From NCBI GenBank assembly GCA_965213995.1, contig OZ243929.1, positions 899,324 through 963,323 of the forward strand: a DNA stretch of 64,000 nt, read 5' to 3'. A program made the translations under genes and the position numbers. Within the stretch, counting starts at the first letter, position 1, and every line of letters starts with the position of its first letter. Source of the DNA: Gammaproteobacteria bacterium. GTDB taxonomy: Bacteria > Pseudomonadota > Gammaproteobacteria > Steroidobacterales > Foliamicaceae. This document shows positions 3,630 through 63,200 of the stretch, in pieces. The notes beneath the pieces were generated by a model. It was given only the letters and a program-made list of their open reading frames with translations, was not told the DNA's origin and made no database searches.

Positions 3630-3750
3630 CCGCTTCGCCGTCCCGCTTCCCCGGAGATGCCAACAAGCACATCCCTGTGGGCTCCGCGGCGGCATCCATG
3701 CCGCCGAGGCTCCGGGGAAGCGGGACGGCGGAGCGGCCTTTAGCAGGCGC
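3630..3750. repeat. nested-hairpin intergenic repeat, copy 1
   Basis: Arms CCGCTTCGCCGTCCCGCTTCCCCGGAG (3630-3656) and CTCCGGGGAAGCGGGACGGCGGAGCGG (3710-3736) are complementary with 1 mismatch. 53-nt loop containing CATCCATGCC. Right flank CCTTTAGCAGGCGC. Confidence 0.85.
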
Positions 3751-3826
3751 AATCTCCCAAGGCCGCGACGACCCAGCCAAGTGGTCCGGGTAGACGGCCC
3801 GAGCAGGCGCAATCCCAAGCAGCCCC

Positions 3827-3959
3827 CCAGCTAAAGCCCTGTTCTTGCCCCTGCCTCGCGGGAGCGTCTGGGGCAGGATGCCCCAGCCGAGCCCCATGGA
3901 CGGGGTCATGCGTCTCCCGCGAGGCAGGGGCAAGAACAGGGCGAGGAGAACCCAAGGGC
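3827..3959. repeat. nested-hairpin intergenic repeat, copy 2
   Basis: Flank CCAGCTAAAGCC. Arm CTGTTCTTGCCCCTGCCTCGCGGGAG (3839-3864) is perfectly complementary to CTCCCGCGAGGCAGGGGCAAGAACAG (3914-3939). 49-nt loop with sub-hairpin CTGGGGCA-GGA-TGCCCCAG and CCATGG. Confidence 0.9.
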
Positions 3960-12891: not shown

Positions 12892-13882
12892 GGACGCTGC
12901 GCCGCCGCATGGCGATCCAAATAAAAGCCGGAGCGCCGACCAAAGCCGCCACCACGCCCAGCTTGAGTTCGTTGGCGGCGGGCATCAGCCGCACGCCGAT
13001 ATCCGCCAGCACGAGGATCAATCCCGCCAGCAGGGCCGACGGAAGCAGCGACCGCGCCGGGTCGTGATCCACCATGGGCCGCACGATGTGCGGCGCGACA
13101 ATGCCCACGAAGCCGATCACGCCGGCCAGCGCCACCGCCGCGCCGGTGGCCAAACCCGCGCCAACAACGATGGCCAGCCGCTGGCGGCGCAGGTTCAGCC
13201 CTACGCCGCTGGCGGCCTCTTCCCCCAGCGTCAGGGCCGACAGGCCGCGGCGGGAGGCAAACAGGACGCCAAGCCCCGCGATCATAAACGGCGCGGCGAA
13301 CCCCAAGTCCTGCAAGCTCCGGTTGGCGACCGAGCCCAGCATCCAATTAATCATGTCCGCCAAGTAGAAAGGGTTCGGGGCCAAGTTCATCATTAGGTTC
13401 ATGGCAGCGGCGGCAAAACTGGAAAGACCCACGCCAATGAGGATCAGCGTAACCACCGAAGTGGTCCGCAGCGCCGCCAAGGCGATCAGCCCGGTGCCTG
13501 CGAGCGCGCCCATGATCGCGGCTGCGGGCATGGCCCAGGCGCTGATCGCGGCGAAGCCGTAGTACAAAGCGCCGGTCGCTCCCAAGGAGGCCATCGCGGA
13601 AATGCCGAGCACGCCGGGTCCCGCCAGCGGATTGCGAAGCAGTCCTTGCAGCGCGGCGCCGCTGGCGCCGAGGGCCGCGCCCACGGCGAAGGCGGCGAGC
13701 GCGCGGGGCAAGCGGATATGCAGCACCACCAGCCGGTCGCCTTGATCGCCGCCGAGCGCCAGCGCGGCCAGAACCCGCTCCGCCCCCATGGGCGTTGAAC
13801 CCAGCAGGCAGGCGGCGAACAACGCCGCCGCGCAGGCGAGGATCAGCGCCGCGAACGCAATCCGCATGATCCGGCGCCGCAT
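12884..13882 (-). CDS. btuC: FecCD-family ABC permease (cobalamin/siderophore type)
   Basis: Polytopic membrane ORF 12884..13936. Start trimmed to the in-frame Met MRRRIMRIAFAALIL just downstream of the btuF stop; the start is uncertain. Overlaps btuD by 8 nt. Confidence 0.8.
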   Translation of the reverse strand: MRRRIMRIAFAALILACAAALFAACLLGSTPMGAERVLAALALGGDQGDRLVVLHIRLPRALAAFAVGAALGASGAALQGLLRNPLAGPGVLGISAMASLGATGALYYGFAAISAWAMPAAAIMGALAGTGLIALAALRTTSVVTLILIGVGLSSFAAAAMNLMMNLAPNPFYLADMINWMLGSVANRSLQDLGFAAPFMIAGLGVLFASRRGLSALTLGEEAASGVGLNLRRQRLAIVVGAGLATGAAVALAGVIGFVGIVAPHIVRPMVDHDPARSLLPSALLAGLILVLADIGVRLMPAANELKLGVVAALVGAPAFIWIAMRRRSVHD

Positions 13883-16686: not shown

Positions 16687-16854
16687 CGTTTATCTCCTCC
16701 CGCGCCCGGCGGGCGCACCGAATGACAAGTCCGGCCCCAACGACTGCAAGCGCCCTCGGGGCTTACCGCATGTCGTTACCAAGGAGAAGGGACATCGGAG
16801 ACTGCCCCGATGCTCGCTCCCGTCCGAAGGCAATGTCCCGACCGACGGACGAAC

Positions 16855-17030
16855 GACGCGATGGCAGGTCTCCTGGCTCGCCGATCAACGCTTTTTGGCC
16901 GCCTTCCCGGAGATATTCCCCAGTGGCATACGGGCCGCAAGCTTCCGGCTCACAGTTGCGGGTACAGCCTCGGATTCACACCGAGTTCCCTATTGGCCAC
17001 CTTGCGCAGGCGGCACCATCTGCCCCGCAT
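16855..17030 (-). promoter_or_regulatory. cobalamin (AdoCbl) riboswitch aptamer in the btuB leader
   Basis: The minus strand reads GGTGCC..AATAGGGAA..GGTGTGAATCC..CCCGCAACTGTGAGCC..GCCACTGGG..CGGGAAGGC..GAGCCAGGAGACCTGCCAT. The last block matches the B12-box consensus AGYCMGGAGACCKGCC. An expression platform follows, then SD GGAGGAG 6 nt before the btuB ATG. Confidence 0.85.
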
Positions 17031-17083
17031 AGTAGCGACCCCATCAGGAAAGTGTCAAGGCGCTGGCCGGGTTCACCACAGCC

Positions 17084-25567: not shown

Positions 25568-25691
25568 GGAGGGCGCTTCGATTCGCCCTCTGCTTGCTCC
25601 CTTCCTCCGGGAGACGCATAAATACATCCATGTAGCTTGCTCCGGCATCCCTGCCTCCGATACTCCCGGAGGAAGGGAGCAAGCAGAGGGC
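25568..25691. repeat. nested-hairpin intergenic repeat, copy 3
   Basis: Flank GGAGGGCGCTTCGATTC. Arm GCCCTCTGCTTGCTCCCTTCCTCCGGGAG (25585-25613) is perfectly complementary to CTCCCGGAGGAAGGGAGCAAGCAGAGGGC (25663-25691). 49-nt loop. Confidence 0.9.
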
Positions 25692-25717
25692 TTGCGGGAT
25701 GCCGACCCTCTTAGGGT

Positions 25718-25850
25718 CCGCGCCAGCCGAAGCCTTTTTGCGCGCTTGCCTCTCGCGGGAGACGCCATCCTTGGCTCGGTTCCGCCATCCATGGCTCCAA
25801 CGCTCCCGCGAGAGGCAAGCGCGCAAAAAGGCGAACCCGAAGCGACCTCC
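25718..25850. repeat. nested-hairpin intergenic repeat, copy 4 (loop in 'flip' orientation)
   Basis: Flank CCGCGCCAGCCGAAGCC. Arm CTTTTTGCGCGCTTGCCTCTCGCGGGAG is perfectly complementary to CTCCCGCGAGAGGCAAGCGCGCAAAAAG. Loop ACGCCATCCTTGGCTCGGTTCCGCCATCCATGGCTCCAACG. Right flank GCGAACCCGAAGCGACCTCC. Confidence 0.9.
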
Positions 25851-31269: not shown

Positions 31270-31947
31270 TTGCGATCGAAAAGAACCGATAAAGAAGCAG
31301 CGCTGGCGGCCAAGCGCAACGCCGCGCGGGCCGCGATCGAGCAGATCCGCCACGGCTGCCGCTTGGGCGTGGGCACGGGCAGCACCGCCAACGAGTTCAT
31401 CGCCTTGCTCCCGGAAGTCCGCGACCGGATCACGGTCGTCGCTTCCAGCTCGCAAGCCACCACCGCCCTGCTCAGCGAGCTGGGCTTCGAGGTGTTGCCG
31501 CTCAGCGAATGCGGAACGCTGGACCTCTACGTGGACGGCGCCGACGAGACCGACGATCACCGCCGCCTCATCAAAGGCGGCGGCGGCGCGCTAACCGGGG
31601 AAAAAATACTCGCGGCCTCCTCGCGGCGGTTCGTCTGCATCGTCGATGAAAACAAGCGGGTGAAGCTGCTCGGCAAATTCCCGCTTCCCGTCGAAGTCAT
31701 TCCTATGGCGCGCTCGTCGGTGGCCCGCAAGCTCGCCGCGATGGGCGGCCAGCCGCAGTACCGCGAGGGCGTGGCCACCGACTACGGCAACGAGATCCTG
31801 GATGTCCGCAATCTCAGGATCCTCGACCCGATGGAGATGGAAACCGAAATCAACCAGATTCCCGGCATCGTGACCGTGGGCCTGTTCGCCCGCCACCGAC
31901 CGGAACTCGTGATCGTGGGCACCGCGCAAGGCGCCTACTCGCTGTAA
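31270..31947 (+). CDS. rpiA: ribose-5-phosphate isomerase A
   Basis: GVGTGSTA, DGADE and KGGGGALTGEK motifs. The start is TTG at 31270 with no nearby ATG, so it is uncertain. Confidence 0.9.
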   Translation: MRSKRTDKEAALAAKRNAARAAIEQIRHGCRLGVGTGSTANEFIALLPEVRDRITVVASSSQATTALLSELGFEVLPLSECGTLDLYVDGADETDDHRRLIKGGGGALTGEKILAASSRRFVCIVDENKRVKLLGKFPLPVEVIPMARSSVARKLAAMGGQPQYREGVATDYGNEILDVRNLRILDPMEMETEINQIPGIVTVGLFARHRPELVIVGTAQGAYSL

Positions 31948-31950
31948 GCG

Positions 31951-32236
31951 CCCGCTAAAGCCCTGCGCCTGCCCGCGCCTCGTGGGAGCGTCTGGGGCAG
32001 GGCGAGCATCGGGCGCTGCGCACGGCGCAGCGAGGCAAAGCATACCTTTGCCAGATGCGAGCGGGCCGACAGGAGGTCGGCCCCGGGCGTTGCTTTTTCG
32101 ATACTGCGCGGCAGGAATGCCAACAGCAACTTATGGGAAACAGGAGGATGGGTTCTTGACCTATGCAGGTCAAGCTTCAAATAGTCATGCGTCTCCCGCG
32201 AGGCGCGGGCAGGAACAGGGCGAGGAATGGCGGGGG
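31951..32236. repeat. long-form (about 270 bp) member of the hairpin repeat family, MITE-like
   Basis: Same termini as the short form: GCTAAAGCCC, arm CCTGCCCGCGCCTCGTGGGAG / CTCCCGCGAGGCGCGGGCAGG, loop ends CGTCTGGGGCAGG...GTCATGCGT. The interior is about 190 nt with at least 4 internal stem-loops. A near-copy lies in inverse orientation at 49970-50262. Confidence 0.85.
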
Positions 32237-33888: not shown

Positions 33889-34297
33889 GCCTTCGCCTTC
33901 GCTCGCCCTCGCCCTTTGCTTGCCCCTGGCCTCGCGGGAGACGCATGAACCCATCCATGGGGCTTGGCGGCGGCTGTCCTGCCGCCTTCGCTCGCCCTCG
34001 CCCTTTGCTTGCCCCTGCCTCGCGGGAGACGCATGAACCCATCCATGGGGCTTGGCGGCGGCTGTCCTGCCGCCTTCGCTCGCCCTCGCCCTTTGCTTGC
34101 CCCTGCCTCGCGGGAGACGCATGAACCCATCCATGGGGCTTGGCGGCGGCTGTCCTGCCGCCTTCGCTCGCCCTCGCCCTTTGCTTGCCCCTGCCTCGCG
34201 GGAGACGCATGAACCCATCCATGGGGCTTGGCGGCGGCTGTCCTGCCGCCGACACTCCCGCGAGGCAGGGGCAAGCAAAGGGCTTTAGCTGGCGCGG
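33889..34297. repeat. 88-bp tandem array (4 units) of hairpin-repeat left arm plus loop, closed by one right arm
   Basis: Units start at 33895, 33984, 34072 and 34160. Unit sequence: GCCTTCGCTCGCCCTCGCCCTTTGCTTGCCCCTGCCTCGCGGGAGACGCATGAACCCATCCATGGGGCTTGGCGGCGGCTGTCCTGCC. A single closing arm CTCCCGCGAGGCAGGGGCAAGCAAAGGGC lies at 34255-34283, then flank TTTAGCTGGCGCGG. Confidence 0.95.
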
Positions 34298-34298
34298 A

Positions 34299-34319
34299 TT
34301 GGTGCAATATGCGGGCAAG
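34299..34319 (-). repeat. recurring motif, reverse-complement copy (CTTGCCCGCATATTGCACCAA)
   Basis: The plus strand reads TTGGTGCAATATGCGGGCAAG. Lies between the 88-bp array and tRNA-Pro. Confidence 0.75.
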
Positions 34320-34406
34320 GAAACACAGCAAGCACCGCACGGCAAACTTGCCGCCTGAAATCTACCCGCCGGTGTTATCATGCGCTCCGCTGGCTCGGCA
34401 TGGCGG

Positions 34407-34483
34407 CGGGGTATGGCGCAGTCTGGTAGCGCGTCTGCTTTGGGAGCAGAAGGTCAACGGTTCGAATCCGTTTACCCCGACCA
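34407..34483 (+). tRNA. tRNA-Pro (anticodon TGG)
   Basis: Manual cloverleaf: acceptor CGGGGTA/TACCCCG, D arm GCGC..GCGC, anticodon stem TCTGC/GCAGA with loop TTTGGGA, T arm AACGG-TTCGAAT-CCGTT, encoded ACCA. Confidence 0.9.
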
Positions 34484-34525
34484 CTGCTTCATAAAAGCCG
34501 CCGCTTTCCCGCTTAACCAGTCGAT

Positions 34526-34602
34526 GCGCCTGTAGCTCAACGGGATAGAGCATCGGCCTTCTAAGCCGGTGGTTGCAGGTTCGAGTCCTGCCAGGCGCGC
34601 CA
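34526..34602 (+). tRNA. tRNA-Arg (anticodon TCT)
   Basis: Acceptor GCGCCTG/CAGGCGC, D arm GCTC..GAGC, anticodon loop CTTCTAA, T arm GCAGG-TTCGAGT-CCTGC, encoded GCCA. Confidence 0.9.
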
Positions 34603-34654
34603 TCGGCATCGGCGCAGGCGGTCGGCGAGCCGGGCACAGCGCATAACAAACCGT

Positions 34655-34731
34655 GGTGGGCGTAGCTCAGTTGGTAGAGCCCCAGATTGTGGATCTGGTC
34701 GTCGTGGGTTCGAGTCCCATCGTCCACCCCA
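34655..34731 (+). tRNA. tRNA-His (anticodon GTG) with G-1
   Basis: Extra 5' G, acceptor GTGGGCG/CGTCCAC, anticodon loop TTGTGGA, T arm GTGGG-TTCGAGT-CCCAT, encoded CCCA. Confidence 0.9.
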
Positions 34732-34826
34732 CCCTCCCCCGCATCGAAGGCACCCCCTCCTTGCGGCCCAAAGCTATGGCAATATGGCACCCTCACCGGC
34801 GTGGCGCTCAACGCCACGCCCACACC

Positions 34827-34900
34827 GGGCCGTTAGCTCAACTAGGTAGAGCAGTGGACTCTTAATCCATTGGTTGCGGGTTCGATTCCCTCACGGCCCA
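34827..34900 (+). tRNA. tRNA-Lys (anticodon CTT), no encoded CCA, T-stem C:U mismatch
   Basis: Acceptor GGGCCGT/ACGGCCC, anticodon stem GTGGA/TCCAT with loop CTCTTAA. T arm GCGGG-TTCGATT-CCCTC (CCCGC expected). The discriminator A is followed by CTC, not CCA. Confidence 0.8.
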
Positions 34901-35034
34901 CTCACTTTCTGTAGCCCGTGGTCCTGCTGGAAAAACTAACGCCAAGAAGGACAAGTGATCATTAACGTCGCCATGCTGCACACCGCCTATTGACCTGTGG
35001 ACGCAAGTATTCGGTCTGTGGCTGGTTCGCTCCG

Positions 35035-35487
35035 TTATCGGGCATCGCCCAAGAATGCGCCAATAAGCTGCTTTGCGTAATGAGAAGCGGATCGGCGAAT
35101 TAGCCAACGGCTTGCGAATAGGATCAAAAAGTAAATTGCCGTTAAGGCGAGAAAGACCCAACCCATGGTCGTATCGACGTGCCAGATAAGACCAGCAGCG
35201 CATACAACGGCAGCTATGATGCTTCCTCCCGCCAAGTTTCGAAAGAAGCCGTACTCCCAATTTCTCTGCAACAATAGCGGCGATCCTCCGGCTGCCGCCC
35301 GAATGCGAGCCACTATGTCGCGGACTTGACGACGTGCCGCGATCTCGTCCCTTTCGCACAATTCGGGTGATGGCAGCTTCATGTTGAATTCCGTCTTTAC
35401 TTTTTCCGCAATTGCAACTTCGCATAGTTCGATCTGCCTGCTTGCACTCGCCATCATTTCCCAGTAGGGTTTACAGATTATATCCAT
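35035..35487 (-). CDS. small membrane protein with two C-terminal TM helices
   Basis: ORF 35035..35667 trimmed to ATG 35487 (MDIICKPYWEMM...) so that it does not overlap the divergent XRE gene; Met at 35457 is an alternative. TM segments GGSIIAAVVCAAGLIW and GWVFLALTAIYFLILFA. No recognised domain. Confidence 0.5.
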   Translation of the reverse strand: MDIICKPYWEMMASASRQIELCEVAIAEKVKTEFNMKLPSPELCERDEIAARRQVRDIVARIRAAAGGSPLLLQRNWEYGFFRNLAGGSIIAAVVCAAGLIWHVDTTMGWVFLALTAIYFLILFASRWLIRRSASHYAKQLIGAFLGDAR

Positions 35488-35497
35488 ATTGGATATA
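35479..35497. promoter_or_regulatory. perfect palindrome TATATCCA-TAT-TGGATATA in the divergent promoter region (putative XRE operator)
   Basis: 8-bp arms with a 3-nt spacer, read directly. Lies in the 35-bp gap between the 2TM gene and the XRE-ImmA gene. Confidence 0.45.
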
Positions 35498-35522
35498 TGT
35501 GTAAACTTAGGAGGAGCGAAGG

Positions 35523-36593
35523 ATGTTGGCACAACGACTGCACCGGGCACGGCAGGCGAGTGGCTTTTCGCTGCGGGCGCTGGCGGAGAAAGTTGGGGTT
35601 TCGGCAATGATGATTTCGAAGTACGAACGCGCTCAGTCCGTACCGTCCTCGGAGGTTCTGCTCTCATTGGCTAAAGCGCTCGGCGTTCGTACCGAGTACT
35701 TTTTCCGCACGTCTACAGTCAACCTTGAACGCATTGAACACCGTAATCGGAATGTTTGGAAATTGCCGAAAAGCGCGGAGAAAAAGGTACTCGCCGATGT
35801 AAGTGATCAGCTTGAGCGCTGGTTAGTACTCGACGATGTAATTCCTGCACCTTGGTCGACCCCATTCTCGTTGCCCATGGATATTCCTGAATCAGTGGAT
35901 AACTTGAATACGATCGAATCGATAGCTTCGCTAGTGCGAAATCACTGGGATCTCGGCCTGAATCCCATACCAGATCTTATTGATTCGTTGGAATCGCGCG
36001 GACTCAAGGTGTTCACGACAAAATTTGACGATCCACGATTCGAGGGAATGAGTGCGATGGCCGATGAACATTACATCATCGTTGTCAGCGGCCATTGGTC
36101 CGGTGATCGCCAACGATTTACCTTGGCTCATGAACTCGGCCATATCGTTTTAGACGATCGCCTTACGCAGGAAATTGACAAAGAAGACGCTGCAAATCGT
36201 TTTGCGGGCGCCTTCTTGGCGCCGGAAGAAAAGGTTATGGAAACCTTGGGCGCAAAACGTCGGGCTTTGGAATTCGCCGAACTGTATCTGTTGAAACACG
36301 AATTTGGATTGAGTATGGCCGGGTGGAGTTATCGAGCACTCAATCTGAACATCGTCACAAAAGCATCCCACAAGGCGTTTTGGACTGACTTTGCTGCCAA
36401 AGGGTGGAATGTAGAGGAACCTGGTCAACCATATCCTTCAGAATCGCCTCGATTGTTTCAGCAAACTGTCTATCGCGCACTCAGCGAGGAATTGATTGGT
36501 GAATCCAAGGCTGCGGAACTGCTATCCATAACTGCAAATGAACTCGCCGCTCGACGGCGGATGGAGATCGTTAATGGCGATTCTGGTCGGTGA
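35523..36593 (+). CDS. XRE-family HTH fused to ImmA/IrrE zinc metallopeptidase
   Basis: AGGAGG RBS, ATG start. N-terminal HTH (FSLRALAEKVGVSAMMISKYERAQSVPS) and HEXXH motif in FTLAHELGHIVL (COG2856-type). Confidence 0.85.
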   Translation: MLAQRLHRARQASGFSLRALAEKVGVSAMMISKYERAQSVPSSEVLLSLAKALGVRTEYFFRTSTVNLERIEHRNRNVWKLPKSAEKKVLADVSDQLERWLVLDDVIPAPWSTPFSLPMDIPESVDNLNTIESIASLVRNHWDLGLNPIPDLIDSLESRGLKVFTTKFDDPRFEGMSAMADEHYIIVVSGHWSGDRQRFTLAHELGHIVLDDRLTQEIDKEDAANRFAGAFLAPEEKVMETLGAKRRALEFAELYLLKHEFGLSMAGWSYRALNLNIVTKASHKAFWTDFAAKGWNVEEPGQPYPSESPRLFQQTVYRALSEELIGESKAAELLSITANELAARRRMEIVNGDSGR

Positions 36594-36741
36594 TGCAAAT
36601 ATCTTTATTGACGTCACTGTTTCAAATCTCTCTGAGGCAATGTTCCGTCTTGAAGACACCATCGCCACACCGGATGTTTTGTATCAAGATGAGCTTCTGC
36701 AACACCACCCGGAATTACCAGGCTTAGGGTTGCAAATTAAT
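36574..36741 (+). pseudogene. PIN-like nuclease gene truncated by an IS end
   Basis: MAILVGDANIFIDVTVSNLSEAMFRLEDTIATPDVLYQDEL resembles the N-terminal strand-Asp-helix of PIN-like (DUF3368/DUF4411-type) partners of XRE-ImmA genes. The reading frame runs into the IS inverted repeat at 36742. Confidence 0.5.
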
Positions 36742-37080
36742 TGTGCGGGTTCAGGACATGTGGGACTGGCGGGGTTCAGTTGTCCTTTGCTTGCGAAAGT
36801 ATTCCATCGGGGTCATCAAGTCCAGCGCGCAGTGGGACCGGACATGGTTGTGGAAGCGCTGGTATTCGGCCAATGCGGGCGCGGCGTACTTGGCGGTCTT
36901 TCTCCTCGGCAGAGGTTCCAGAACTCGGTTGTGGAGCTGTCGCTGGCGCGCTCGACGATGCCATTGATCTCGGGGCATTTGGGCGGCAGGACGGCCAGCG
37001 GGAGGCCGAGCGCCTGGCAGGCGCACTTTCGTCCAGTATCTAGAAGCCGTAATCCCCTACTACTGCGACAGAGTAGGCCA
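36742..37080 (-). mobile_element. IS remnant: right inverted repeat plus frameshifted 3' third of a DDE (rve) transposase
   Basis: IR TGTGCGGGTTCAGGACATGTGGGACTGGCGGGGTTCAG at 36742-36779. Minus-strand fragments read LLDTGRKCACQALGLPLAVLPPKCPEINGIVER... and, after a frameshift, YQRFHNHVRSHCALDLMTPMEYFRKQ. These correspond to the DNG..F, P.TNGKVER and YN..RPH.AL...TP motifs of IS3/IS481-type integrase cores. Confidence 0.65.
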
Positions 37081-37296
37081 GCAACTGCGGCGCTAGACCT
37101 CACCTGCTCCCCTAAAGAAAGAACGAAACGAGGGCCTAGCTGAGAGTGCAAATTAGAAAATCCAGTCAAAGACTGCGCCAAGTTTCATCTCGGATCGGAT
37201 AAAACAACCCTCACGCCCGCGTAAGTTTCGCTTTGTTCCCTGTTATGGTTGCGCGGCGGTTAGCGACATCCCGAGGCAAGCGACCACTCACGGACA

Positions 37297-38313
37297 ATGA
37301 GCGAAACAATAGCAGTGCGCGTCGAACCGGGAGAAACGCTCTCGGAGATTGCCATCCGGCACAGCGTCACCGTCGAGCAATTGCAGGAATGGAATCGGAT
37401 CGAAGAAGCGGACTATGTGCAGGCGGGCCAGAGAATCGTCGTCCATAAGGCGGCGGTTGCTCCAGGCTGGAACGAAGCGGCCGCCCCTTGGGATGCATTG
37501 CTGGGAGGAGCGCTCGTTGTAGCGGCACTGTTATTCCTGTTCCGCCGCAAACGCCAAACTCCGACTTCGTCGCCTGATACCGGAGTCCGCCCACCGAAAA
37601 AAGCACCACATCGGCCCGAACCGAAATCCGCTGCGGCATTGCGGAAACCCGCGCCGCCAGCAAACGCCGGCGAGCAACGGGTCCGATCAGTGTTGGCGAG
37701 GCGTTATCGGGACTGGCCGCTGCTTAATGACGTGCTGCTTCCGTCCGGGGGAGGGACGGCACAGATCGATCACATCCTCATCTCGCCCGCCGGCGTGTTC
37801 GTAATCGAGACCAAGGACATGGGCGGTTGGATATTCGCAAGTCCCGGGCAGCAACGGTGGACGCAAACATTGCCGGCGGGCCGTTGGTCCCGCATGATGG
37901 GCATCAAGTCGAGGCGGTTCCCTTTCTACAATCCGCTGCGGCAGAATGAAGGGCACGCGAAGGCCTTGGTCAAACTCGGCATCGTTAATCCTAGGGAGAT
38001 TCGGCCTGTCGCCGTATTCGTGGGCGAGGCCGAGATGAAAACGGAGGAGAAGTTCGCAGGATTCGAGGAGCATGAAGAGAAGGCAAAGCGGTTCCGTAGC
38101 TGGCGAATGCGAGGCGTTGTCTGCATGAGCCTGCGGGAGTTGCGGCGCTACATCGCCTTCTCCGTTCGTGCGCCATCAGGACCAAGCCTGACGCGCGAGA
38201 GGATGGAAGCGATCCGGTCAAAGATAGCAAAAGCTGCCCTGCCCTTGACGGCGGAAACTCACGCCAGACATGTCGAGTTCGCCCGGTCTGCTGAACGAGC
38301 ATCGTGGCAATGA
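37297..38313 (+). CDS. LysM - transmembrane - NERD domain fusion protein
   Basis: LysM: VRVEPGETLSEIAIRHSVTVEQLQEWNRIEEADYVQAGQRIVV. TM: ALLGGALVVAALLFLF followed by RRKRQ. NERD: GEQRVRSVLARRYRDWPLLNDVLLP..TAQIDHILISPAGVFVIETKDMGGWIF. Confidence 0.75.
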   Translation: MSETIAVRVEPGETLSEIAIRHSVTVEQLQEWNRIEEADYVQAGQRIVVHKAAVAPGWNEAAAPWDALLGGALVVAALLFLFRRKRQTPTSSPDTGVRPPKKAPHRPEPKSAAALRKPAPPANAGEQRVRSVLARRYRDWPLLNDVLLPSGGGTAQIDHILISPAGVFVIETKDMGGWIFASPGQQRWTQTLPAGRWSRMMGIKSRRFPFYNPLRQNEGHAKALVKLGIVNPREIRPVAVFVGEAEMKTEEKFAGFEEHEEKAKRFRSWRMRGVVCMSLRELRRYIAFSVRAPSGPSLTRERMEAIRSKIAKAALPLTAETHARHVEFARSAERASWQ

Positions 38314-38495
38314 ACCGCAATATCGCATGTTTGGGCTGGGGGCCTCTCATCTGGGATCCCCCGAGATCACGCACAAGTCAGCCGAAATCGGTCCCGTCAA
38401 GAATGCTCTTTAGGTGGTCGCGCCACGCGGCTTTGCCGTCTTCATCGGAAACTTCCTGCCACAGATGGTTCAGTATCCCTCTGGCGCGCTCCCGG

Positions 38496-39125
38496 TCAGG
38501 CGAAGCCATTGCTGCCGGAAGCCGGATCGAAATTCATCCACAATGATTCCCGCCTGATGCTCTTGGAGGAGTTGCAGATTTTCTCCGGCGCATCCACTCG
38601 GCGCCAATCGCCGAACAGCTCGTCGTAAAGATCGCATCGGTATCCTGAAAGCACCGCCCGACCCTTCACGCTTTGCAGCGCAGCAGCCATGTCGCGGTGG
38701 TCCTGGTCGGTCATTTCATGCCCGTAAGCACTCGAATCCCCTCGGCTGTTATGAACATAAGGAGGATCCAAGTAGAAAAGCGTTTTCGGCGTGTCGTAGC
38801 GTTGGACAACTTCCAAGGCGGGAGCGTTCTCGATCTGCACTCGCTGCAATCTTTGCGCGATTTCCGGCAGCCCTTCAACCGCTCCTAGCCAACGGGAAAC
38901 AGCGCCAGCCATGCCGGCTCTGGAAGTCAGGACGCAGTGAGCCCAACGCCCTTCGCTGCTCGTTTGCGCGAGCCCCGTGCGGGTTTGCCGCGCCCGAACG
39001 TAGAACCGGCGGGCACGCTCAAGAGATGACAGGTTCTCCGATGAGCCGCACGCTTTGACGAGTTCCGCTCTTGAGAACGGCGTCAGCCCGATGCCACGAA
39101 TAAGATCGTCGGGCTGGTCGCGCAA
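38496..39125 (-). pseudogene. D12-class (Dam-like) N6-adenine DNA methyltransferase lacking its N-terminal SAM-binding region
   Basis: Catalytic FYLDPPY motif and a Dam-like C-terminal half. The ORF opens right after an in-frame stop (39135-39137) and begins at a TTG. The usual N-terminal 60-90 residues (KWAGGK...FxGxG) are missing. It abuts the Fic gene stop. Confidence 0.65.
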
Positions 39126-39140
39126 AACGGCAATTCAGGA

Positions 39141-40481
39141 TTAGCCCAGCTTCCGCAGTCGCTCTTCGGTATTTTCCGCCGGACGGAAGATAAATGAGCG
39201 ACCGCGTTTGGTCATTTTCAGCAAACCGAGGTCAGCGAGCTTAAGCAGATCGGTTCGAGCCGTTTGATAGGTTACGTTGTGTGAAGTCCGGTGGCTGCGG
39301 ATCGTATATAGCTGATCGGGCTGCTTTCGCGCGGAAATCAATAGCGCCATCTGTCGGTGGTTAAGAATGGTTGTCAGCGCCGATCCGGCAAGAAGGCGCT
39401 GAACCTCGGAAATTTCTTTTGATTTTCGCGCCAGGTACTTGTGGAGCCGCTCAATCGCGCCAAGAATGACGCGAAGGTTGTAGTCAATGAAATAGGTGGC
39501 GTCATTGTCATCGGTTTCCGAAAAAATATACGACCTCGCGTACTGCGCTGGCGCTTTGCGAATAATGGTCGAGATTGAAAGGCACTCCGCCATCCAGTAC
39601 CCGGCGCGCGCCATGGCCCAGTAGAAAAGAGCGCGAGCGGTCCGCCCGTTGCCGTCAACAAACGGGTGCTCGTAGCCGATCATGAAGTGCAGGAGCACGG
39701 CCTTAATCACAGGATGAATGAACGAGGCGTCGTCCGTATGATTGGCAAAACGGAAAAGGTTATTCAGACGTTCTTCGAGATGGGCGGCATTGGGCGGAAT
39801 ATGCAGCACCTCGTTGTCCCGGCTGTCAATAACAAGCACCTCATCCTCGGCTCGCCTGAACCGGCCCGCAATGCCTGCATCGTTCGTCGTGCCCTCGACG
39901 AGGATGCTCTGCAGCTCCAGCAGCAAGGACATGGACAGATTCTCCCCGCCGAGTTCTCGAAGAAACTCCATGGCGCGGTAATTGTTGGCAATCATCCTTT
40001 CGCTTTTGGTCTGCGGTTCGCGCCCGGTTCGCAGCATCTCCTTGGCGACGCGGCGGGTTGTGGCAGCGCCCTCTAGTTGACTTGAGGTAATCGCTTCTTC
40101 GATCAGCGAGCTCACTAGGTAGCGATTCCGCGATTGCGGATTCACAACGTCAACCGGCAATTCGATACGACCGCTGGCATCGCGATCGATCTGGTGAAGC
40201 ATCCGGTTCAGATACCCTGAGTCGCTGAACGAAAATCGGCATCCGTTCTTGTCAGCAAGCGGAAGCTCGTGTCTTATCGAAGCCCTTGCGAACTTTATTG
40301 CCAGCCACCATTCTTCATTGGATATCCCCTCAGGTGGCTGCATGTGCTTCAGTTTTGACCAATGCGCATATCGGTCATTCGGGATATTCCCCACTCCGGA
40401 TGAGACCAGATTCAGGATTTTCCTTGCCTGCTCATGGGAATCCAAGCCGCTCAGGGAAGGCAGCGGAGAAGGCAGCTTCAT
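39141..40481 (-). CDS. Fic-family protein (AMPylase type) with autoinhibitory helix and C-terminal winged-helix
   Basis: Fic motif HPFVDGNGRTARAL and inhibitory motif SSQLEG. Start placed at ATG 40481; the track start at 40520 is TTG. Confidence 0.88.
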   Translation of the reverse strand: MKLPSPLPSLSGLDSHEQARKILNLVSSGVGNIPNDRYAHWSKLKHMQPPEGISNEEWWLAIKFARASIRHELPLADKNGCRFSFSDSGYLNRMLHQIDRDASGRIELPVDVVNPQSRNRYLVSSLIEEAITSSQLEGAATTRRVAKEMLRTGREPQTKSERMIANNYRAMEFLRELGGENLSMSLLLELQSILVEGTTNDAGIAGRFRRAEDEVLVIDSRDNEVLHIPPNAAHLEERLNNLFRFANHTDDASFIHPVIKAVLLHFMIGYEHPFVDGNGRTARALFYWAMARAGYWMAECLSISTIIRKAPAQYARSYIFSETDDNDATYFIDYNLRVILGAIERLHKYLARKSKEISEVQRLLAGSALTTILNHRQMALLISARKQPDQLYTIRSHRTSHNVTYQTARTDLLKLADLGLLKMTKRGRSFIFRPAENTEERLRKLG

Positions 40482-40525
40482 TGAGAATAAACCTAGACTG
40501 GAAGGCAAGCCAAATATCAATTTTC

Positions 40526-40598
40526 TACTAATTCATATCAAATTAGTAACTCGTGGCGCCCAATGTAAATAAAATACTAATTAATGTCAAATTAGTAT
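40526..40598. promoter_or_regulatory. two operator-like palindromes upstream of Fic gene 1
   Basis: TACTAATT-CATATCA-AATTAGTA (40526-40548) and ATACTAATT-AATGTCA-AATTAGTAT (40574-40598). Both have the same half-site and a 7-nt spacer, in an AT-rich region. Confidence 0.5.
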
Positions 40599-40624
40599 TT
40601 TGATTCAGGCTAGCGCGCTCAGAT

Positions 40625-40663
40625 CAACCCGATCCCAGTCCCGCATGTGTCTGAACCCGCACA
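40625..40663 (+). mobile_element. solo IS terminal inverted repeat (IRL-type)
   Basis: ...CCCAGTCCCGCATGTGTCTGAACCCGCACA. Its last 20 nt are identical to 17101-17120. It is in inverted orientation relative to the IS end at 36742. Confidence 0.55.
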
Positions 40664-40831
40664 TGACTCCACCGGCCGCCAACAATCATGTGATAGTATG
40701 CACACATGATTGCTATCACAAGAGGCGTTGAACATGCTGGCCTTAGGAACTAGCACGGCTTGCCGGAATCGGCGGCTGGGTCGGCCCGTGAAACGCCAAA
40801 CGATAGCAAGACACCACTACTTGGAGGAGTC

Positions 40832-41491
40832 ATGTATATTAAATCCCCCCCCCCCCCTTCAAAAAAACTAGCGCTACTTGCAGCAACCGCACTGCTATCC
40901 GCCACCCAGCTAGCATTAGCAGCACCTGGAGTATCTCTGGGCACAAAGCAAAGCAACATGGGCGGAAGTGAGCTCACCCTTTCATTGACCTGCGGTACGA
41001 AAGGATATCTCGCCACAGGGGTTGGAGAGGACCATGCGACCTATCTGGGGCAGCGACAGCGTAGTGACGGCTCCAACACGACTCCGTTGGAGTCCGGGCT
41101 CGTCAATCTTGCGTCCACGTACTTCTACGTCCGAGGGGTAGGTATCGGAAGAGCATCGGATGACGGTAATTTCTCGCCCCTTCCAGAAAATCATCCCGGG
41201 CGTGCCTGGGGCGCAAAGAGATGGGGAGATTTATGGGGTGCCGTCATGCAGCCTCGTTACGAGGTTGACATTGAGTTGACCGCGACTCCACAGCCGGACC
41301 CTCCGGTGTATTTCGTAACTAACAACACTAGCGGTATTCCAGTCGAGAGCAAGACTGTGATCGTTCAGCGCAGGTATGACACCCCATACGCAGAGCAAAA
41401 CGTGAGCTTGGTGCGTTACTGCGATCTCAATTCCAAAGAAACGATCAGTGTCACCATCAATGGAAGGATCACAGGCAAAAGGCCATTGTGA
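40832..41491 (+). CDS. secreted hypothetical protein with a C13 tract in its signal-peptide codons
   Basis: GGAGGA 4 nt upstream of ATG 40832. MYIKSPPPPSKKLALLAATALLSATQLALA|APG looks like a Sec signal peptide. The mature part has no recognised domain. Confidence 0.6.
   Translation: MYIKSPPPPSKKLALLAATALLSATQLALAAPGVSLGTKQSNMGGSELTLSLTCGTKGYLATGVGEDHATYLGQRQRSDGSNTTPLESGLVNLASTYFYVRGVGIGRASDDGNFSPLPENHPGRAWGAKRWGDLWGAVMQPRYEVDIELTATPQPDPPVYFVTNNTSGIPVESKTVIVQRRYDTPYAEQNVSLVRYCDLNSKETISVTINGRITGKRPL
40845..40857 (+). repeat. homopolymeric C13 tract followed by TTC and A7
   Basis: Counted directly: 6 C at 40845-40850 plus 7 C at 40851-40857. A7 at 40861-40867. Confidence 0.95.
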
Positions 41492-41749
41492 TCCTTGAGA
41501 CGACCGACGGAAGCATGGTGGAGTCATGATCCGTTGCCCTCCTCACCATCCCTGCACTCGCGACGGCGGAGCTATGCGACGACCACTGGTACGACAACCT
41601 CCATCGAAAAATCGAACCCGATAACTAACTCTACGCGGGGATTACCGGAGCAAGGCCTTGGGCCTGTACTCCGACACCATCATGCGCCCGGCTGCGGAAA
41701 TCGAAAAGCATCTGGCGCGGCGGAAGGCGGCGCAGGAAGCGGAAAGCCG

Positions 41750-46018: not shown

Positions 46019-46657
46019 TTAGGAGAAACTGAAATCTTCGAAGCGCTGTTTCAAAGCTTGTTTGTTAGGCTTTCGCGCCCTGTTTTTCGGCTCACGTAGA
46101 GGTCGGCCGTGATACTTCCCGTAGCCGCTATTGCGGAGTTCCGCTTTGACCACAACCTTGAAGCTGCCCGGATCGATAGTTATTAGGCCGCAGTCGAACA
46201 GCGTGTGAATATCGGCGCGGAGCAGGAGCCCGTTGCTTACGCAGCTCGTGCCTTTATCTGCGTACGGGTGAATATGCGCCGCCTCCAATACATCCTGAAC
46301 CGCGCATTTAGTGATCGCACACTTGTGTTCATAGGCTTCAAGCAATCCTTGCCGAAATGCACTTTGTCCGCGGCGTTGCAGGATCAATGTATTGATCCGT
46401 TCCCATGCCCCCTCGATCGTTTCCAGGTTGCCTGCGTCATCGTCCGCAGCGTCCGGTGAAAGCGGTGACAGACCGCCGAGTGGGCCAAGCACCTCCTGCA
46501 GTTTCTTGCGATTCTCCTCCTTCGGACGGCGAGTCCCACGCTCCCAATGAGAAATCATTCCCGTAGACACGCCAATTTTCTCTGCGAGCTTGGCTTGCGT
46601 AAGACCAATTTCGAGACGACGGCGCTGCATGCTTTTGCCAAGACTGTTATCACTCAT
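46019..46657 (-). CDS. XRE-type HTH fused to HNH_2 endonuclease domain
   Basis: AAGGAG RBS, ATG start. HTH: LTQAKLAEKIGVSTGMISHWERGTRRP. HNH: CAITKCAVQDVLEAAHIHPYADKGTSCVSNGLLLRADIHTLFDCGLITID. Confidence 0.8.
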   Translation of the reverse strand: MSDNSLGKSMQRRRLEIGLTQAKLAEKIGVSTGMISHWERGTRRPKEENRKKLQEVLGPLGGLSPLSPDAADDDAGNLETIEGAWERINTLILQRRGQSAFRQGLLEAYEHKCAITKCAVQDVLEAAHIHPYADKGTSCVSNGLLLRADIHTLFDCGLITIDPGSFKVVVKAELRNSGYGKYHGRPLREPKNRARKPNKQALKQRFEDFSFS

Positions 46658-46739
46658 TGCTGATTTCTCCTTGGATGGCAGATTGAGGTTATCTTGCCCG
46701 TTTGTTGATTGTTCTTAATTGGCGCTACCCCGCCTTCTG

Positions 46740-47549
46740 CTAGCGTGACAGAGCCTTGCTGATTTGCTGGCAGAATTTCTTTCTTTCAGGGGCTTCTGTG
46801 TAGAGCACAGCCTGCTGCAGGTTTGAATGGCTCGTGCCTTCAACCTCGGAGAGCGCGAACCTCTTGCCGCCCGGATTTTCTGGATCGTCCTCGTAAGAGT
46901 AGGACATGAAGATGATGTTGACGGTGCTGTCCCGCACGTCCCGCGTCCGCATGAATTCCGCCTTGGCCCGCACGTATTCGTACAAGACATCCTGCATCAC
47001 CGCGACAATCTTCGTGCCCCAATGATGATGAAAATATCCCTTTCGTATGAGCTGCGTGATGTAGCGCTTATAGACATTGTCGAAGTTAAGCCCGTAGCTT
47101 TTCTTCGTCTCCATCTGCCGCACTTCGCGCATGGCCGAGTAGGCATCCCCCACCGTTCCAGTGATATCAATGGCTTGCAGTTCAACCGATAAGAACTGGC
47201 CTATGCCGCCCTCTTCATCGACATCGGCCACAACGAAATCCACGTTGCCAAAGCCCGTCATCTTTACTTCGCGGGCCACCTTGGGATTCACAGGCGGGTT
47301 TCCGGGCCAGCAATGCTTGACAACATCGCTCAAGAAATCGACTTGATTGAAGCGTTTGGGACACACGCATACCTGCCTGCCCAATTTCCAAATTGAGCAG
47401 ACCGGATAAGGCTCCTTGAGGGAAGTGCTGCGCTTGACGCACTGCGTTCCCAGGAACGGGCACGTGAACGAATGGGCGGACGGATCGAGTCCTGGCTCTG
47501 CGGGCCGACCCAAGACCTCGCAAATGTATTCTCTCGGATCAGACGGCAA
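46740..47549 (-). CDS. type II restriction endonuclease, NotI-like fold
   Basis: The N-terminal Cys cluster FTCPFLGTQCVKRS..PYPVCSIW..VCVCPKRF resembles the NotI Fe-Cys4 motif (CPFL..C..VC..VCP.R). Later blocks LSVELQAIDITG and GLNFDNVYKRYITQL parallel NotI. Overlaps the Dcm gene by 11 nt. The start is TTG and uncertain. Family assignment is from memory, not from a search. Confidence 0.6.
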   Translation of the reverse strand: MPSDPREYICEVLGRPAEPGLDPSAHSFTCPFLGTQCVKRSTSLKEPYPVCSIWKLGRQVCVCPKRFNQVDFLSDVVKHCWPGNPPVNPKVAREVKMTGFGNVDFVVADVDEEGGIGQFLSVELQAIDITGTVGDAYSAMREVRQMETKKSYGLNFDNVYKRYITQLIRKGYFHHHWGTKIVAVMQDVLYEYVRAKAEFMRTRDVRDSTVNIIFMSYSYEDDPENPGGKRFALSEVEGTSHSNLQQAVLYTEAPERKKFCQQISKALSR

Positions 47550-48693
47550 TGGCTAGTTCCAAGTCGGCATCGCCTTGGCGTTCCGGTTCCGCAAGCTGCA
47601 TCGCGCGAAGCATTGCTTGGGCAACGCGCTTTGCGAGAACCGGCGGCACCGCGTTGCCCACTTGAACAAACTGTTCGGTTCTAGGCCCCTGAAATTGAAA
47701 CCGGTCCGGAAAGGATTGCAGCCGTGCCGCTTCGCGCACGGTGAGCACGCGATCCTGTTCGGGGTGGATATACGCGCCCCAATGGATATCGCATTTTGTA
47801 AGCACGGTGCTTGACAGGCCATCGTTGCGGAGCCGGCCGTAACGCTTGGTATGGTCGCAACGGCGCGCCTTTTTCATTCCGGCCGGCAATAGGTCGTGCG
47901 GAATATCGCGCCAGCTGCCTCCCGGCCCAATATGCTTCATCCGCTGCAAATTGATCGGGGCAAGGCGGGGCGCGGCGTGGTTATGGACGACGGTTGAATC
48001 GCCCCGCATCATTGCCTGAAAGCCCGAACGGGCCGGGGCGCGGTAGCTCGCAGGGCCAGCATCTTCGCCGTTCTTGAGTTTCGGCAAATCGCTGATGGCC
48101 TCCCCCACAGTCACAAAGGGCAGAAGGCCGCGCCCATGTGTCGGCTGCGGCCACAACACAGGCAAGCCCAGCCGGTTGCCAACGAAAAATACCCGGCGCC
48201 GCTCTTGCGGCACGCCGTGCTCTTCCGCCCTTAACGTCCGCATATCCACAACGTAGCCCAACTCGGAGAGGCCCGCCAAAATTTTCTTGACCGCCTTGCC
48301 TTTTCCGGCGGAAGTAATCCCGGTGACATTCTCCAGCACCACCCATTTCGGGGCCAATCCCCTAACAATCCGCAGATATTCCTCGAATAGCCTGCTGCGC
48401 TTGTCGTGAAGGCCGCGCTGATGGTTATAAACGCTGAACGCTTGGCAAGGCGGCCCGCCGATCAGGCAGTCCAGCCCCCCTTTTTCCAGACCGGTTGCTT
48501 CAAGGAGATGGTCCGCGCTGATTTCCTCGATGGGTCCCGGCAGGAACCCGGCGGCATCATGCGCCACGCTGAATGTGGCGCCGGCATGCTCGTCGAAATC
48601 GTTGCCGGCCAGAATCGTGAAGCCCGCCTGCTGAAATCCCTCGGAAAGACCTCCTGCTCCGCAGAACAGGTCGATGGCTGTTATTTCCTGCAT
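47539..48693 (-). CDS. dcm: DNA (cytosine-5)-methyltransferase
   Basis: Motif I DLFCGAGGLSEGF, IV GGPPCQAFS, VI VVLENV, IX RLQSFPDRFQF, X VGNAVPP. Confidence 0.92.
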   Translation of the reverse strand: MQEITAIDLFCGAGGLSEGFQQAGFTILAGNDFDEHAGATFSVAHDAAGFLPGPIEEISADHLLEATGLEKGGLDCLIGGPPCQAFSVYNHQRGLHDKRSRLFEEYLRIVRGLAPKWVVLENVTGITSAGKGKAVKKILAGLSELGYVVDMRTLRAEEHGVPQERRRVFFVGNRLGLPVLWPQPTHGRGLLPFVTVGEAISDLPKLKNGEDAGPASYRAPARSGFQAMMRGDSTVVHNHAAPRLAPINLQRMKHIGPGGSWRDIPHDLLPAGMKKARRCDHTKRYGRLRNDGLSSTVLTKCDIHWGAYIHPEQDRVLTVREAARLQSFPDRFQFQGPRTEQFVQVGNAVPPVLAKRVAQAMLRAMQLAEPERQGDADLELAIAV

Positions 48694-49969: not shown

Positions 49970-50262
49970 GGGCCGTGCTTCCTCCGCCCTTTCTCCCCCC
50001 TTTCCCGCAGGAGACGCATGACTACTTGAAGCTTGACCTGCATAGGTCAAGAACCCATCCTCCTTCTTCCCGGGAGTTGCTGTTGGCATCCCTGCCGCGC
50101 GGCGGTGCCGGAATCACGCCCGGGGCCGGCCTCCTGTCGGCCCGCTCGCATCTGGCAAAGGCATGCTTTGCCTCGCTGCGCTGCGCACAGCGACCGATGC
50201 TCGCCCTGCCGCCGACACTCCTGCGGGAAAGGAGGGGAGAAAGGGCTCACGACGGCGCTGAC
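49970..50262. repeat. long-form hairpin-repeat element, inverse-orientation copy
   Basis: Arms GCCCTTTCTCCCCCCTTTCCCGCAGGAG (49986-50013) and CTCCTGCGGGAAAGGAGGGGAGAAAGGGC (50218-50246). The interior is the reverse complement of 31989-32192, with a diverged central segment. Confidence 0.85.
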
Positions 50263-50295
50263 CTCCATACGCTGCCGCAGCTCCTCGGACCTGCA

Positions 50296-50360
50296 CTCCC
50301 ATAGCCTGTTCTTGCCCCTTCCTTCCGGGAGTATTGGAGGCAGGATGCCGATCATCAGGG
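50296..50360. repeat. half hairpin-repeat element (left arm plus loop start only)
   Basis: CTGTTCTTGCCCCTTCCTTCCGGGAG followed by TATTGGAGGCAGGATGCCGAT. No matching right arm before the next element begins. Confidence 0.7.
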
Positions 50361-50493
50361 GCCGCGCCAGCCGAAGCCTCTATGCGCGTTTCCCTCTCGC
50401 GGGAGTGTTGGAGCCAGGGATGGCGGAACCAAGCCAGGGATGGCGCCTCCCGCGAGAGGGAAACGCGCATAGAGGCGGAATCGAAGCGCCTCC
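50361..50493. repeat. nested-hairpin intergenic repeat, copy with loop in 'flop' orientation
   Basis: Flank GCCGCGCCAGCCGAAGCC. Arm TCTATGCGCGTTTCCCTCTCGCGGGAG is perfectly complementary to CTCCCGCGAGAGGGAAACGCGCATAGA. Loop TGTTGGAGCCAGGGATGGCGGAACCAAGCCAGGGATGGCGC. Right flank GGCGGAATCGAAGCGCCTCC. Confidence 0.9.
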
Positions 50494-50627
50494 AGCATAA
50501 GTGACAAGTAGTGCGCGCCTATCGGGCCTATGAAAACGGCGGGCCGGGGGGCGGCGGCGCGCCGGCCGCAGGCTGCTACAATTGCGGGTTTTTCACGCAT
50601 ATCCCGATAACCGGGACGGAATATCCT

Positions 50628-52710: not shown

Positions 52711-52876
52711 GCCCGTCCCCTTTTTCCGGGAGACGCATGCCGCTTTGGGTTCGCCTCTTTGCGCGTTCCCCTCTCGCGGGAGACGCATGAACCCATCCAT
52801 GGGGCTTGGCGGCGGCTGTCCTGCCGCCGACACTCCCGCGAGAGGGGAACGCGCAAACAGGCTTCGGCTGGCGCGG
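52711..52876. repeat. half element plus one complete nested-hairpin repeat
   Basis: Half element: GCCCGTCCCCTTTTTCCGGGAGACGCATGCCGC. Full copy: arm CTCTTTGCGCGTTCCCCTCTCGCGGGAG, loop ACGCATGAACCCATCCATGGGGCTTGGCGGCGGCTGTCCTGCCGCCGACA, arm CTCCCGCGAGAGGGGAACGCGCAAACAG, flank GGCTTCGGCTGGCGCGG. Confidence 0.9.
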
Positions 52877-63131: not shown

Positions 63132-63141
63132 CCGGTTCCTC

Positions 63142-63200
63142 GGGCTTTGCCTCGTTGCCTCTTGCGCGGAAACGCATGAAGGGGAACAGGACTAAAGCCC
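63142..63200. repeat. degenerate hairpin-repeat fragment
   Basis: GGGCTTTGCCTCGTTGCCTCTTGCGCGGAA-ACGCATGA-...ACTAAAGCCC retains the arm, loop start and flank motifs but has no complementary arm. It is followed by a 28-nt direct repeat TAAAGCCCGCGC(A/G)CGCGTCCGCCGCAA at 63193 and 63252. Confidence 0.5.

Follow-up and report, generated by a model that had tools for sequence, protein, structure and literature searches.

REPINs are intergenic elements of about 100-150 nt that form one long hairpin, carry compensatory changes along it, lie in ordered tandem clusters and are rapidly gained and lost between close strains (PMC3116915). Their ends, the REPs with a 5' GTAG, are invariant and enclose a variable spacer (PMC3116915, PMC8266576). 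BIMEs are mosaics of a few motifs that combine short REP palindromes with linkers. Tandem copies are frequent among them (PMC8266576). ERIC (IRU) elements are imperfect palindromes of ~127 bp that lie in transcribed intergenic DNA and vary in copy number between relatives. Longer ERIC variants, as reported by Sharp & Leach 1996 and Wilson & Sharp 2006, arise when tens of bases are inserted at fixed internal positions, and they are the nearest known counterpart of the short and long forms described below. ERIC also affects mRNA decay through RNase E (PMC10969869). Correia elements of Neisseria (NEMIS or CREE) are hairpin MITE-like repeats whose long and short subtypes differ by an internal segment. 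Their terminal inverted repeats are conserved and 26 bp long, and there is a TA duplication. Some Correia subtypes have sigma-70 promoters that point outward, the elements are able to invert, and RNase III cuts their transcripts, and MITE-like repeats at large act as promoters and as RNase III/RNase E targets (PMC10969869).

The window considered here, the whole 64-kb stretch of DNA that was analysed, comes from an uncultured gammaproteobacterium known solely from metagenome-assembled genomes. A profile built from short copies locates a palindromic repeat family at about 10 loci in the window, all of them intergenic, and extrapolation from this density puts the copy number at probably hundreds per genome. 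The family is a familiar kind of bacterial palindromic mosaic repeat but is not itself REPIN, ERIC, Correia or BIME, because it lacks a GTAG next to the palindrome, reverses the pattern of conservation known from REPINs and MITEs, has no match in E. coli genomes, plasmids or phages, and shows no visible target-site duplication at the one polymorphic site. Two copies, A and B, are of a long form, and we consider them probably to be a long subtype of this high-copy, intergenic, REPIN/ERIC/BIME-like mosaic.

A family of shared parts and variable arms

The members found in the window are the following, with copies A and B dissected further below.

3642-3750, minus strand: diverged short copy
3825..3953, plus strand: short member, arm type i
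25578-25693 and 25719-25830: two adjacent short members between convergent genes
31948-32233, plus strand: copy A, ~285 bp
33894..34296, minus strand: one full short member and an 88-bp tandem array
49975-50262, minus strand: copy B, ~285 bp
50303-50350 and 50363-50474, plus strand: a truncated member and a complete short one, sharing their intergenic region with copy B
52754..52875, minus strand: short member downstream of the H+-pyrophosphatase gene

Two lesser traces were also noted, an orphan fragment at 52729-52741 that comprises a loop end and partial arm (GGCATGCGTCTCCCGG...), and a degraded copy at 63140-63200, after a gene ending at 63131.

Family elements measure ~130-285 bp, have inverted arms of 29 bp and consist of a left flank motif, a stem of ~29 bp, a conserved apical region edged by GGGAG...CTCCC, and a right flank motif. 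The arms have no constant sequence other than GCCC at the stem base and GGGAG at the stem top. The flank motifs are asymmetric: the left one is CGCGCCAGCYRAAGCC, with aligned copies reading ...CGCGCCAG CYRAAGCC, and the right one is GGGCGAGG or GGCGAACC...GAAGCG. Within the window the left motif occurs only where it adjoins a family member, and we rejected the idea that a flank motif is a repeated target site, as it was never met there without an element. Some copies have an extra left module, GCCCGCATATTGCACCAAT, and an outer module of ~20-30 nt, (T)AGCCCGCATATTGCACCAAT, precedes the left flank motif at three otherwise unrelated loci:

window 34297-34330, minus strand: outer module (T)AGCCCGCATATTGCACCAAT
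L026 ~4998-5030, minus strand: the same outer module
L027 ~13038-13070, minus strand: the same outer module

(L-numbers denote DNA records of relatives.) Optional modules shared by some copies in this manner indicate that the family is a mosaic. Long and short repeats have the loop ends CGTCTGGGGCAGG...GTCATGCGTCTCC in common, and both ends are over-represented in the window, the right end being matched 12 times where 2.1 matches would be expected and the left end 6 times where 0.5 would. The original prediction that the long elements are members of a hairpin-repeat family is borne out.

Rearranged members occur within the window itself. The 88-bp array (33894-34250, minus strand) comprises 4.0 units that are 99% identical, each unit being a loop, right arm and flank. 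In another pair of copies, at 25719-25830 and 50363-50474, arm type and flank orientation are the same and the apical loops are opposite, the one at 25719-25830 being inverted relative to its flank motifs; this loop variant is itself an internal direct repeat, AGCCAGGGATGGCG x 2.

Measured against REPINs, the family shares the long hairpin of inverted halves with compensatory changes, the intergenic location, the high copy number, the tandem clusters and the rapid gain and loss. Neither GTAG nor CTAC stands next to the stem in any of the aligned copies (cf. PMC8266576), and whereas the ends are the most conserved part of REPs and REPINs (PMC3116915), the pattern here is the opposite, with stem ends and apical loop conserved and the middle of the stem variable. 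A Pfam scan of 20 window ORFs found no transposase, RAYT included, and the lack of any mobilising enzyme among these ORFs counts against reading A and B as palindromic repeats of this kind. RAYTs are single-copy genes. A cognate autonomous IS sharing the termini was likewise not found in the window or in 0.5 Mb of related loci.

Compared with ERIC, the stems of this family are longer and essentially perfect and its modules are larger (114 and 31 nt), and a short copy had no blastn match (word size 11) in 5,426 E. coli genomes. Neither the long nor the short form had a BLAST match in plasmids, phages or E. coli genomes, and scans of genome, metagenome and viral collections with exact patterns of the long form found nothing either. 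The family forms hairpins and has long and short subtypes as Correia elements do. In contrast to Correia elements, the arms differ between copies, no duplication was seen at one polymorphic site, and a promoter-like match passes the scan in copy A only. The family is like BIMEs in being a mosaic of few motifs (flanks, the optional left module, arms and loop modules) with frequent tandem copies, but where BIMEs join short REP palindromes by linkers, it has a single long stem topped by a conserved apical region.

Several other features of the window were recorded alongside the repeats. The 88-bp array lies directly upstream of a four-tRNA cluster (34407-34900, plus strand); elsewhere, the array site holds ~10 nt only (L008, L010), an unrelated 1.7-kb insert (L001) or one short copy that faces the other way (L007). 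Just past the tRNA cluster, ~34900-41500 has a low GC3 (0.51-0.67 vs ~0.8 elsewhere) and encodes an HTH and M78 peptidase (IrrE-like) protein, a LysM-NERD nuclease, a D12 methyltransferase fragment and a Fic protein. Part of it, 34903-37157, is missing from the ~95%-identical relative L001, and the stretch resembles a genomic island that is associated with tRNA genes and carries defence-type genes. The stretch 46019-48693 (minus strand), just upstream of a ThiF/rhodanese gene, holds an HTH-HNH endonuclease-like ORF with a C-5 cytosine DNA methylase close by; the two may form a restriction-modification pair. The cobalamin riboswitch is represented at 16846-17036 (minus strand) by a full-length aptamer (RF00174, 126.8 bits, E = 1.7e-31).

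Copies A and B

Both long elements, with their shared termini, lie essentially where the original prediction had placed them. The neighbouring genes it named are also confirmed by Pfam as rpiA, an aldehyde dehydrogenase, a ThiF/rhodanese (MoeB-like) gene and an H+-pyrophosphatase. Copy A begins 1 nt past the rpiA TAA (31945-31947), the right arm of copy B lies ~65 nt upstream of the start of the ThiF/rhodanese gene, and each copy points toward the next gene on its own strand. Their parts are as follows.

31948..31959, plus strand: copy A left flank motif GCGCCCGCTAAA (family consensus CGCGCCAGCYRAA), read from the sequence and the aligned left flanks
31960..31988, plus strand: copy A outer stem (29 bp), left arm GCCCTGCGCCTGCCCGCGCCTCGTGGGAG
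31989..32001, plus strand: copy A apical loop, conserved first part CGTCTGGGGCAGG, common to short copies
32002..32115, plus strand: copy A 114-nt module, from alignment A3, nhmmer and pair counts
32116..32155, plus strand: copy A apical loop, 3' portion AATGCCAACAGC...AGGAGGATGGGTTC, homologous to the short-form loop but diverged from it
32156..32186, plus strand: copy A 31-nt module TTGACCTATGCAGGTCAAGCTTCAAATAGTC, a perfect 8-bp hairpin
32187-32192, plus strand: copy A loop end ATGCGT, followed at 32193-32221 by the right arm CTCCCGCGAGGCGCGGGCAGGAACAGGGC
32222..32233, plus strand: copy A right flank motif GAGGAATGGCGG, still present in the L001 deletion remnant
50218-50246, minus strand: copy B left arm, sense GCCCTTTCTCCCCTCCTTTCCCGCAGGAG, followed at 50205-50217 by the loop start TGTCGGCGGCAGG
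50091..50204, minus strand: copy B 114-nt module with the common patch TGATTCCGGCACCGCCG
50051-50090, minus strand: copy B 3' loop segment, followed at 50020-50050 by the 31-nt hairpin module
50014-50019, minus strand: copy B loop end ATGCGT, followed at 49986-50013 by the right arm

The long form is thus the usual apical loop of ~49 nt with two additions, a 114-nt module of three hairpins and a perfect hairpin of 31 nt. In copy A the apical loop measures 204 nt (31989-32192) vs ~49 nt in short copies, and the extra sequence comes to ~155 nt (114 + 31 + ~10), less than the ~190 nt first estimated. The hairpins of the 114-nt module in copy A are CGCTGCGC/GCGCAGCG, GGCAAAG/CTTTGCC and GGCCGAC/GTCGGCC, and a second GGCAGG stands at its end; all four of the internal stem-loops listed in the original prediction are present in the sequence as written there. 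The left arm of copy A matches, at 27/29 positions, that of the short element which L007 carries at this site, and its right flank together with the arm end reads GGGCGAGG, the right flank consensus of the family. The arm type of copy B is also seen in two copies from relatives, L027b and L028.

The two copies had been described as reverse complements of each other apart from a diverged centre. This is true of the core, where A 31985-32200 (plus strand) aligns to B 50221-50006 (minus strand) over 219 nt at 86.8% identity (BLASTN, E = 3e-71) and includes a diverged patch of 17 nt in copy A (32090-32106), but not of the arms flanking it, which are unrelated in sequence (alignment A1). The patch is unique to copy A, and the other five DNA copies of the long type have TGATTCCGGCACCGCCG in its place.

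Since there are two copies in opposite orientation, each spanned by ORFs (72-155 aa), an inverted segmental duplication or a small protein-coding gene could be imagined. Both ideas have next to nothing left in their favour. A duplication is refuted by the unrelated flanks and arms and by six further long-type copies at unrelated loci of other genomes, in agreement with the earlier argument from the differing flanks. A gene is refuted by frames and start codons that are not conserved and by the lack of homologues of the ORF frame, matches to any frame being the repeat itself. The ORFs at 31955..32173 (minus strand) and 50033..50500 (plus strand) are the same repeat frame and both start MTCIGQEPILL, just as had been supposed when they were set aside as the repeat read as protein. 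The 72-aa antisense frame has no homologue in 5.8 billion proteins, and a protein search with one sense frame of the repeat found none. A 34-aa peptide (32055-32159) was also considered and rejected, its ATG being lost in L027a and its frame in L026. Copies A and B are non-coding.

Long-type copies and site turnover in relatives

We fetched the corresponding loci of relatives via RpiA, and found further long copies by comparing the translation of an 81-aa frame of the repeat with 1.84 billion representative proteins; the matches are spurious ORFs, in which the same repeat is read as protein. The records fetched via RpiA are all labelled 'MAG: Gammaproteobacteria bacterium', with isolate names that seem to resemble those used in sponge-microbiome studies. 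Among the relatives, L001 is ~94-96% identical in DNA to 21-39 kb of the window. The new long-type DNA copies are these:

L026, 4755-4997: long-type copy
L027, 9935-10177: long-type copy
L027, 12783-13037: long-type copy
L028, 1798-1997: long-type copy

Two more, P0001 and P0002, are known as protein only and lie on a contig of 2.48 Mb, which brings the long type to eight copies, six as DNA and two as protein. All six of the additional copies have the 114-nt module and none has the 31-nt TTGACC...AGTC hairpin; for P0001 and P0002, its absence was read from N-termini that span GGGTTCATG. With the 114-nt module as query, nhmmer found exactly six copies in 0.5 Mb of window and related-locus DNA, and these are carried on four arm types. 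The 31-nt module is found in copies A and B only, where it differs by one base. Neither module was ever found outside a family hairpin in the window and the related loci.

The original prediction had taken the long form as the parent of the short repeats, which would be products of internal deletion. Direct repeats do bracket the 114-nt module (GGCAGG in A, GCGGCAGGG in B-type copies), so that slippage would delete it, and internal deletions are known in these hairpins (L001, L003). An insertion would account for these direct repeats just as well, and the deletion product they predict (…GGCAGGGATGCCAACAGCAAC…) is absent among 13 short copies. Short loops contain a paired CGGCGGC/GCCGCCG or CTGGGGC/GCCCCAG hairpin at a place where the long form has no such hairpin, and short forms are taxonomically wider, reaching the more divergent genomes L005 and L023-L025. 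The long form furthermore encodes nothing, and so has no capacity as an autonomous element, and its 31-nt module is private to two copies. Parenthood therefore looks quite improbable for the long form, and since six of the eight long-type copies are without the 31-nt hairpin, the ~285-bp form of A and B is the most derived long form seen and not the ancestral one.

The rpiA 3' site illustrates how fast these elements change. It holds the long form in the window and a short form on nearly the same arms in L007. In L001, at ~95% nucleotide identity, only a remnant of flank motifs and outermost stem bases is left, GCTAAAGCCCTGTGCC-GATTT-GGGCGAGG, and L008 and L010 have no element. These states imply that the arms reside at the locus and change at about the genomic rate, with the apical content swapped in place. 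At this site in L007 (7024-7110), the last bases of rpiA and the left flank (CTGTAAGCGCGG[G/A]CTAAAGCCC) also appear twice, ~60 nt apart, and a second partial copy (loop and right arm) lies just before the aldehyde dehydrogenase start.

Partial tandem arrays (window and L007) and internal deletions (L001 and L003) show the usual instability of long palindromes. In addition, the 31-nt module is near-identical in A and B despite arms of 48% identity, which shows that apical modules reassort between copies.

A second site, a junction between convergent genes, was found in five states. At L005 4751-4913, a 160-nt insert consists of an outer GGGAGCG/CGCTCCC hairpin that encloses a family member. 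The stop codons abut one another in L002 (~628) and L004 (~4893), reading CAACTGA(G)|TCAGCG, and are 6 nt apart in L006; L010 (~4900) has a small GGGAGCGA/TCGCTCCC hairpin alone, and L003 (~4830) an internally deleted member. No duplicated target bases are visible at the L005 site, where the direction of change among the five junction states is uncertain. For the window copies, no clean empty site occurs among the relatives' loci.

Nesting of this sort could mean that the modules are themselves small mobile insertions into single-stranded hairpin loops. The L005 member inside the loop of an outer hairpin that stands alone at the same site in L010 is what such insertions would leave, as are the direct repeats of 6-9 bp that flank the 114-nt module and the occurrence of the same modules on unrelated arms. 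The modules, however, have no terminal inverted repeats of their own and are never met outside the family hairpin, gene conversion explains the same mosaics without a new mechanism, and the sample is eight copies; we consider the idea very doubtful. The 114-nt module as a MITE in its own right was rejected, as its ends have no inverted repeat.

Arms, interior and possible functions

Within a copy the arms are almost perfectly complementary, as 544/552 positions in 19 copies are Watson-Crick. The eight mismatches (3 G·T, 2 C·A, 3 other) indicate neither wobble enrichment nor strand bias in the arms. Between long copies, the arms are 48-80% identical (48% for A vs B) and the interior is 80-95% identical. 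A conserved apical part is unusual in comparison with REPINs and MITEs, in which the ends are conserved and the middle is variable. The elements are MITE-like in that they are small, non-coding and bounded by terminal inverted repeats (29-bp arms, no conserved ORF). Their arm sequences, however, are not conserved across copies as a transposase site would be, and no target-site duplication is visible at one polymorphic site, so the earlier suggestion of a MITE is not supported.

The other early suggestion was a structured RNA, in its fuller form a functional small RNA or cis-regulatory element that comprises the apical region with the 114-nt module on a variable stem. Several observations are favourable to it. 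The interior is more conserved than the arms, and the fold of copy A is far below that of shuffled sequences (z = -8.4 for the plus strand and -7.3 for the minus strand). Moreover, both window copies face the next gene on their own strand. In the four local hairpins, stem columns are less often variable (5/56) than loop columns (6/17; Fisher p = 0.015), which hints at constraint on the 114-nt module in a small sample, the six long-type DNA copies compared. One compensatory pair is found inside the GGCCGAC/GTCGGCC hairpin, where A-U and G-C are linked by an A·C intermediate.

The covariation check that had been proposed does find double compensatory changes in alignment A3, at 12/80 predicted pairs, but 11 of these 12 lie in the two outer-arm helices (10 fall within the main stem, which has 18 pairs), and the Watson-Crick arms have no G·U enrichment. 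Most internal pairs of the interior hairpins never vary, and invariant pairs say nothing for or against RNA structure. The interior consensus folds equally well in sense (-66.6 kcal/mol) and antisense (-64.7 kcal/mol). With no asymmetry in G·U pairs or in folding, our attempts to name a transcribed strand from either were rejected.

Orientation to genes is equally inconsistent: sense in copy A and L027b and antisense to both neighbours in L026, with convergent genes around L027a and L028 and a divergent pair around copy B. The loop, moreover, can be inverted relative to the flanks. No Rfam family matches the elements at the gathering score or at E <= 10, the sole covariance-model matches over them being sub-threshold ones to generic hairpins (miRNA precursors), and no promoter or terminator is conserved. 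For these reasons we think a functional RNA unlikely.

We also considered regulatory signals within the element. The 31-nt module of copy A contains a sigma-70-like TTGACC-18-AATAGT, while that of copy B has AGTAGT and fails the scan; a conserved promoter was rejected on this ground, and the module would be at best a weak outward promoter. An intrinsic terminator was rejected because no T-run follows the stem. The notion that the interior consists of rearranged pieces of other members was likewise rejected (best local score of 29 vs a shuffle maximum of 31).

Taken as a mosaic repeat, the elements behave as DNA palindromes and not as genes, and are gained, lost and truncated between close relatives. 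We propose that the long subtype arose when the apical region gained the GC-rich 114-nt module and, in the source genome only, the 31-nt hairpin as well, while the arms within each copy were kept exactly complementary. Apical modules would be swapped between copies with unrelated arms, likely by gene conversion through the stem-top and loop-end sequences, as the mosaic patterns suggest. Recombination between the arms would flip the loop, and slippage would produce tandem partial arrays and deletion remnants. Spread would probably depend on a structure-recognising enzyme that acts in trans on the single-stranded hairpin, in the REPIN/RAYT manner. If the 29-bp stem is co-transcribed, it may serve as a 3'-end barrier to exonucleases or as an RNase III target, by analogy with Correia and ERIC (PMC10969869).

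It is also conceivable, if improbable, that the apical region and its add-on modules are a real functional or mobile unit, either an RNA on a varying stem or a loop-targeted element. In the latter, the recognition site of the enzyme may lie in the loop and not at the termini, and the unit may insert into loops or be copied between them. If true, either version would explain the near-identical apices on unrelated stems across genomes, as well as the family member nested in the loop of another hairpin.

For the lineage itself, a density of about one family copy per 6 kb yields spurious ORF calls of 72-155 aa and likely breaks metagenomic assemblies. The repeats mark rapid structural change between strains, which makes them useful for annotation and strain typing. 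By itself the family reveals no new mechanism. It is a clean natural example of hairpin arms that diverge yet stay complementary while near-constant apical modules are shuffled among them, a pattern that is unlike textbook MITEs and REPINs and could inform how palindromic repeats are recognised and homogenised.
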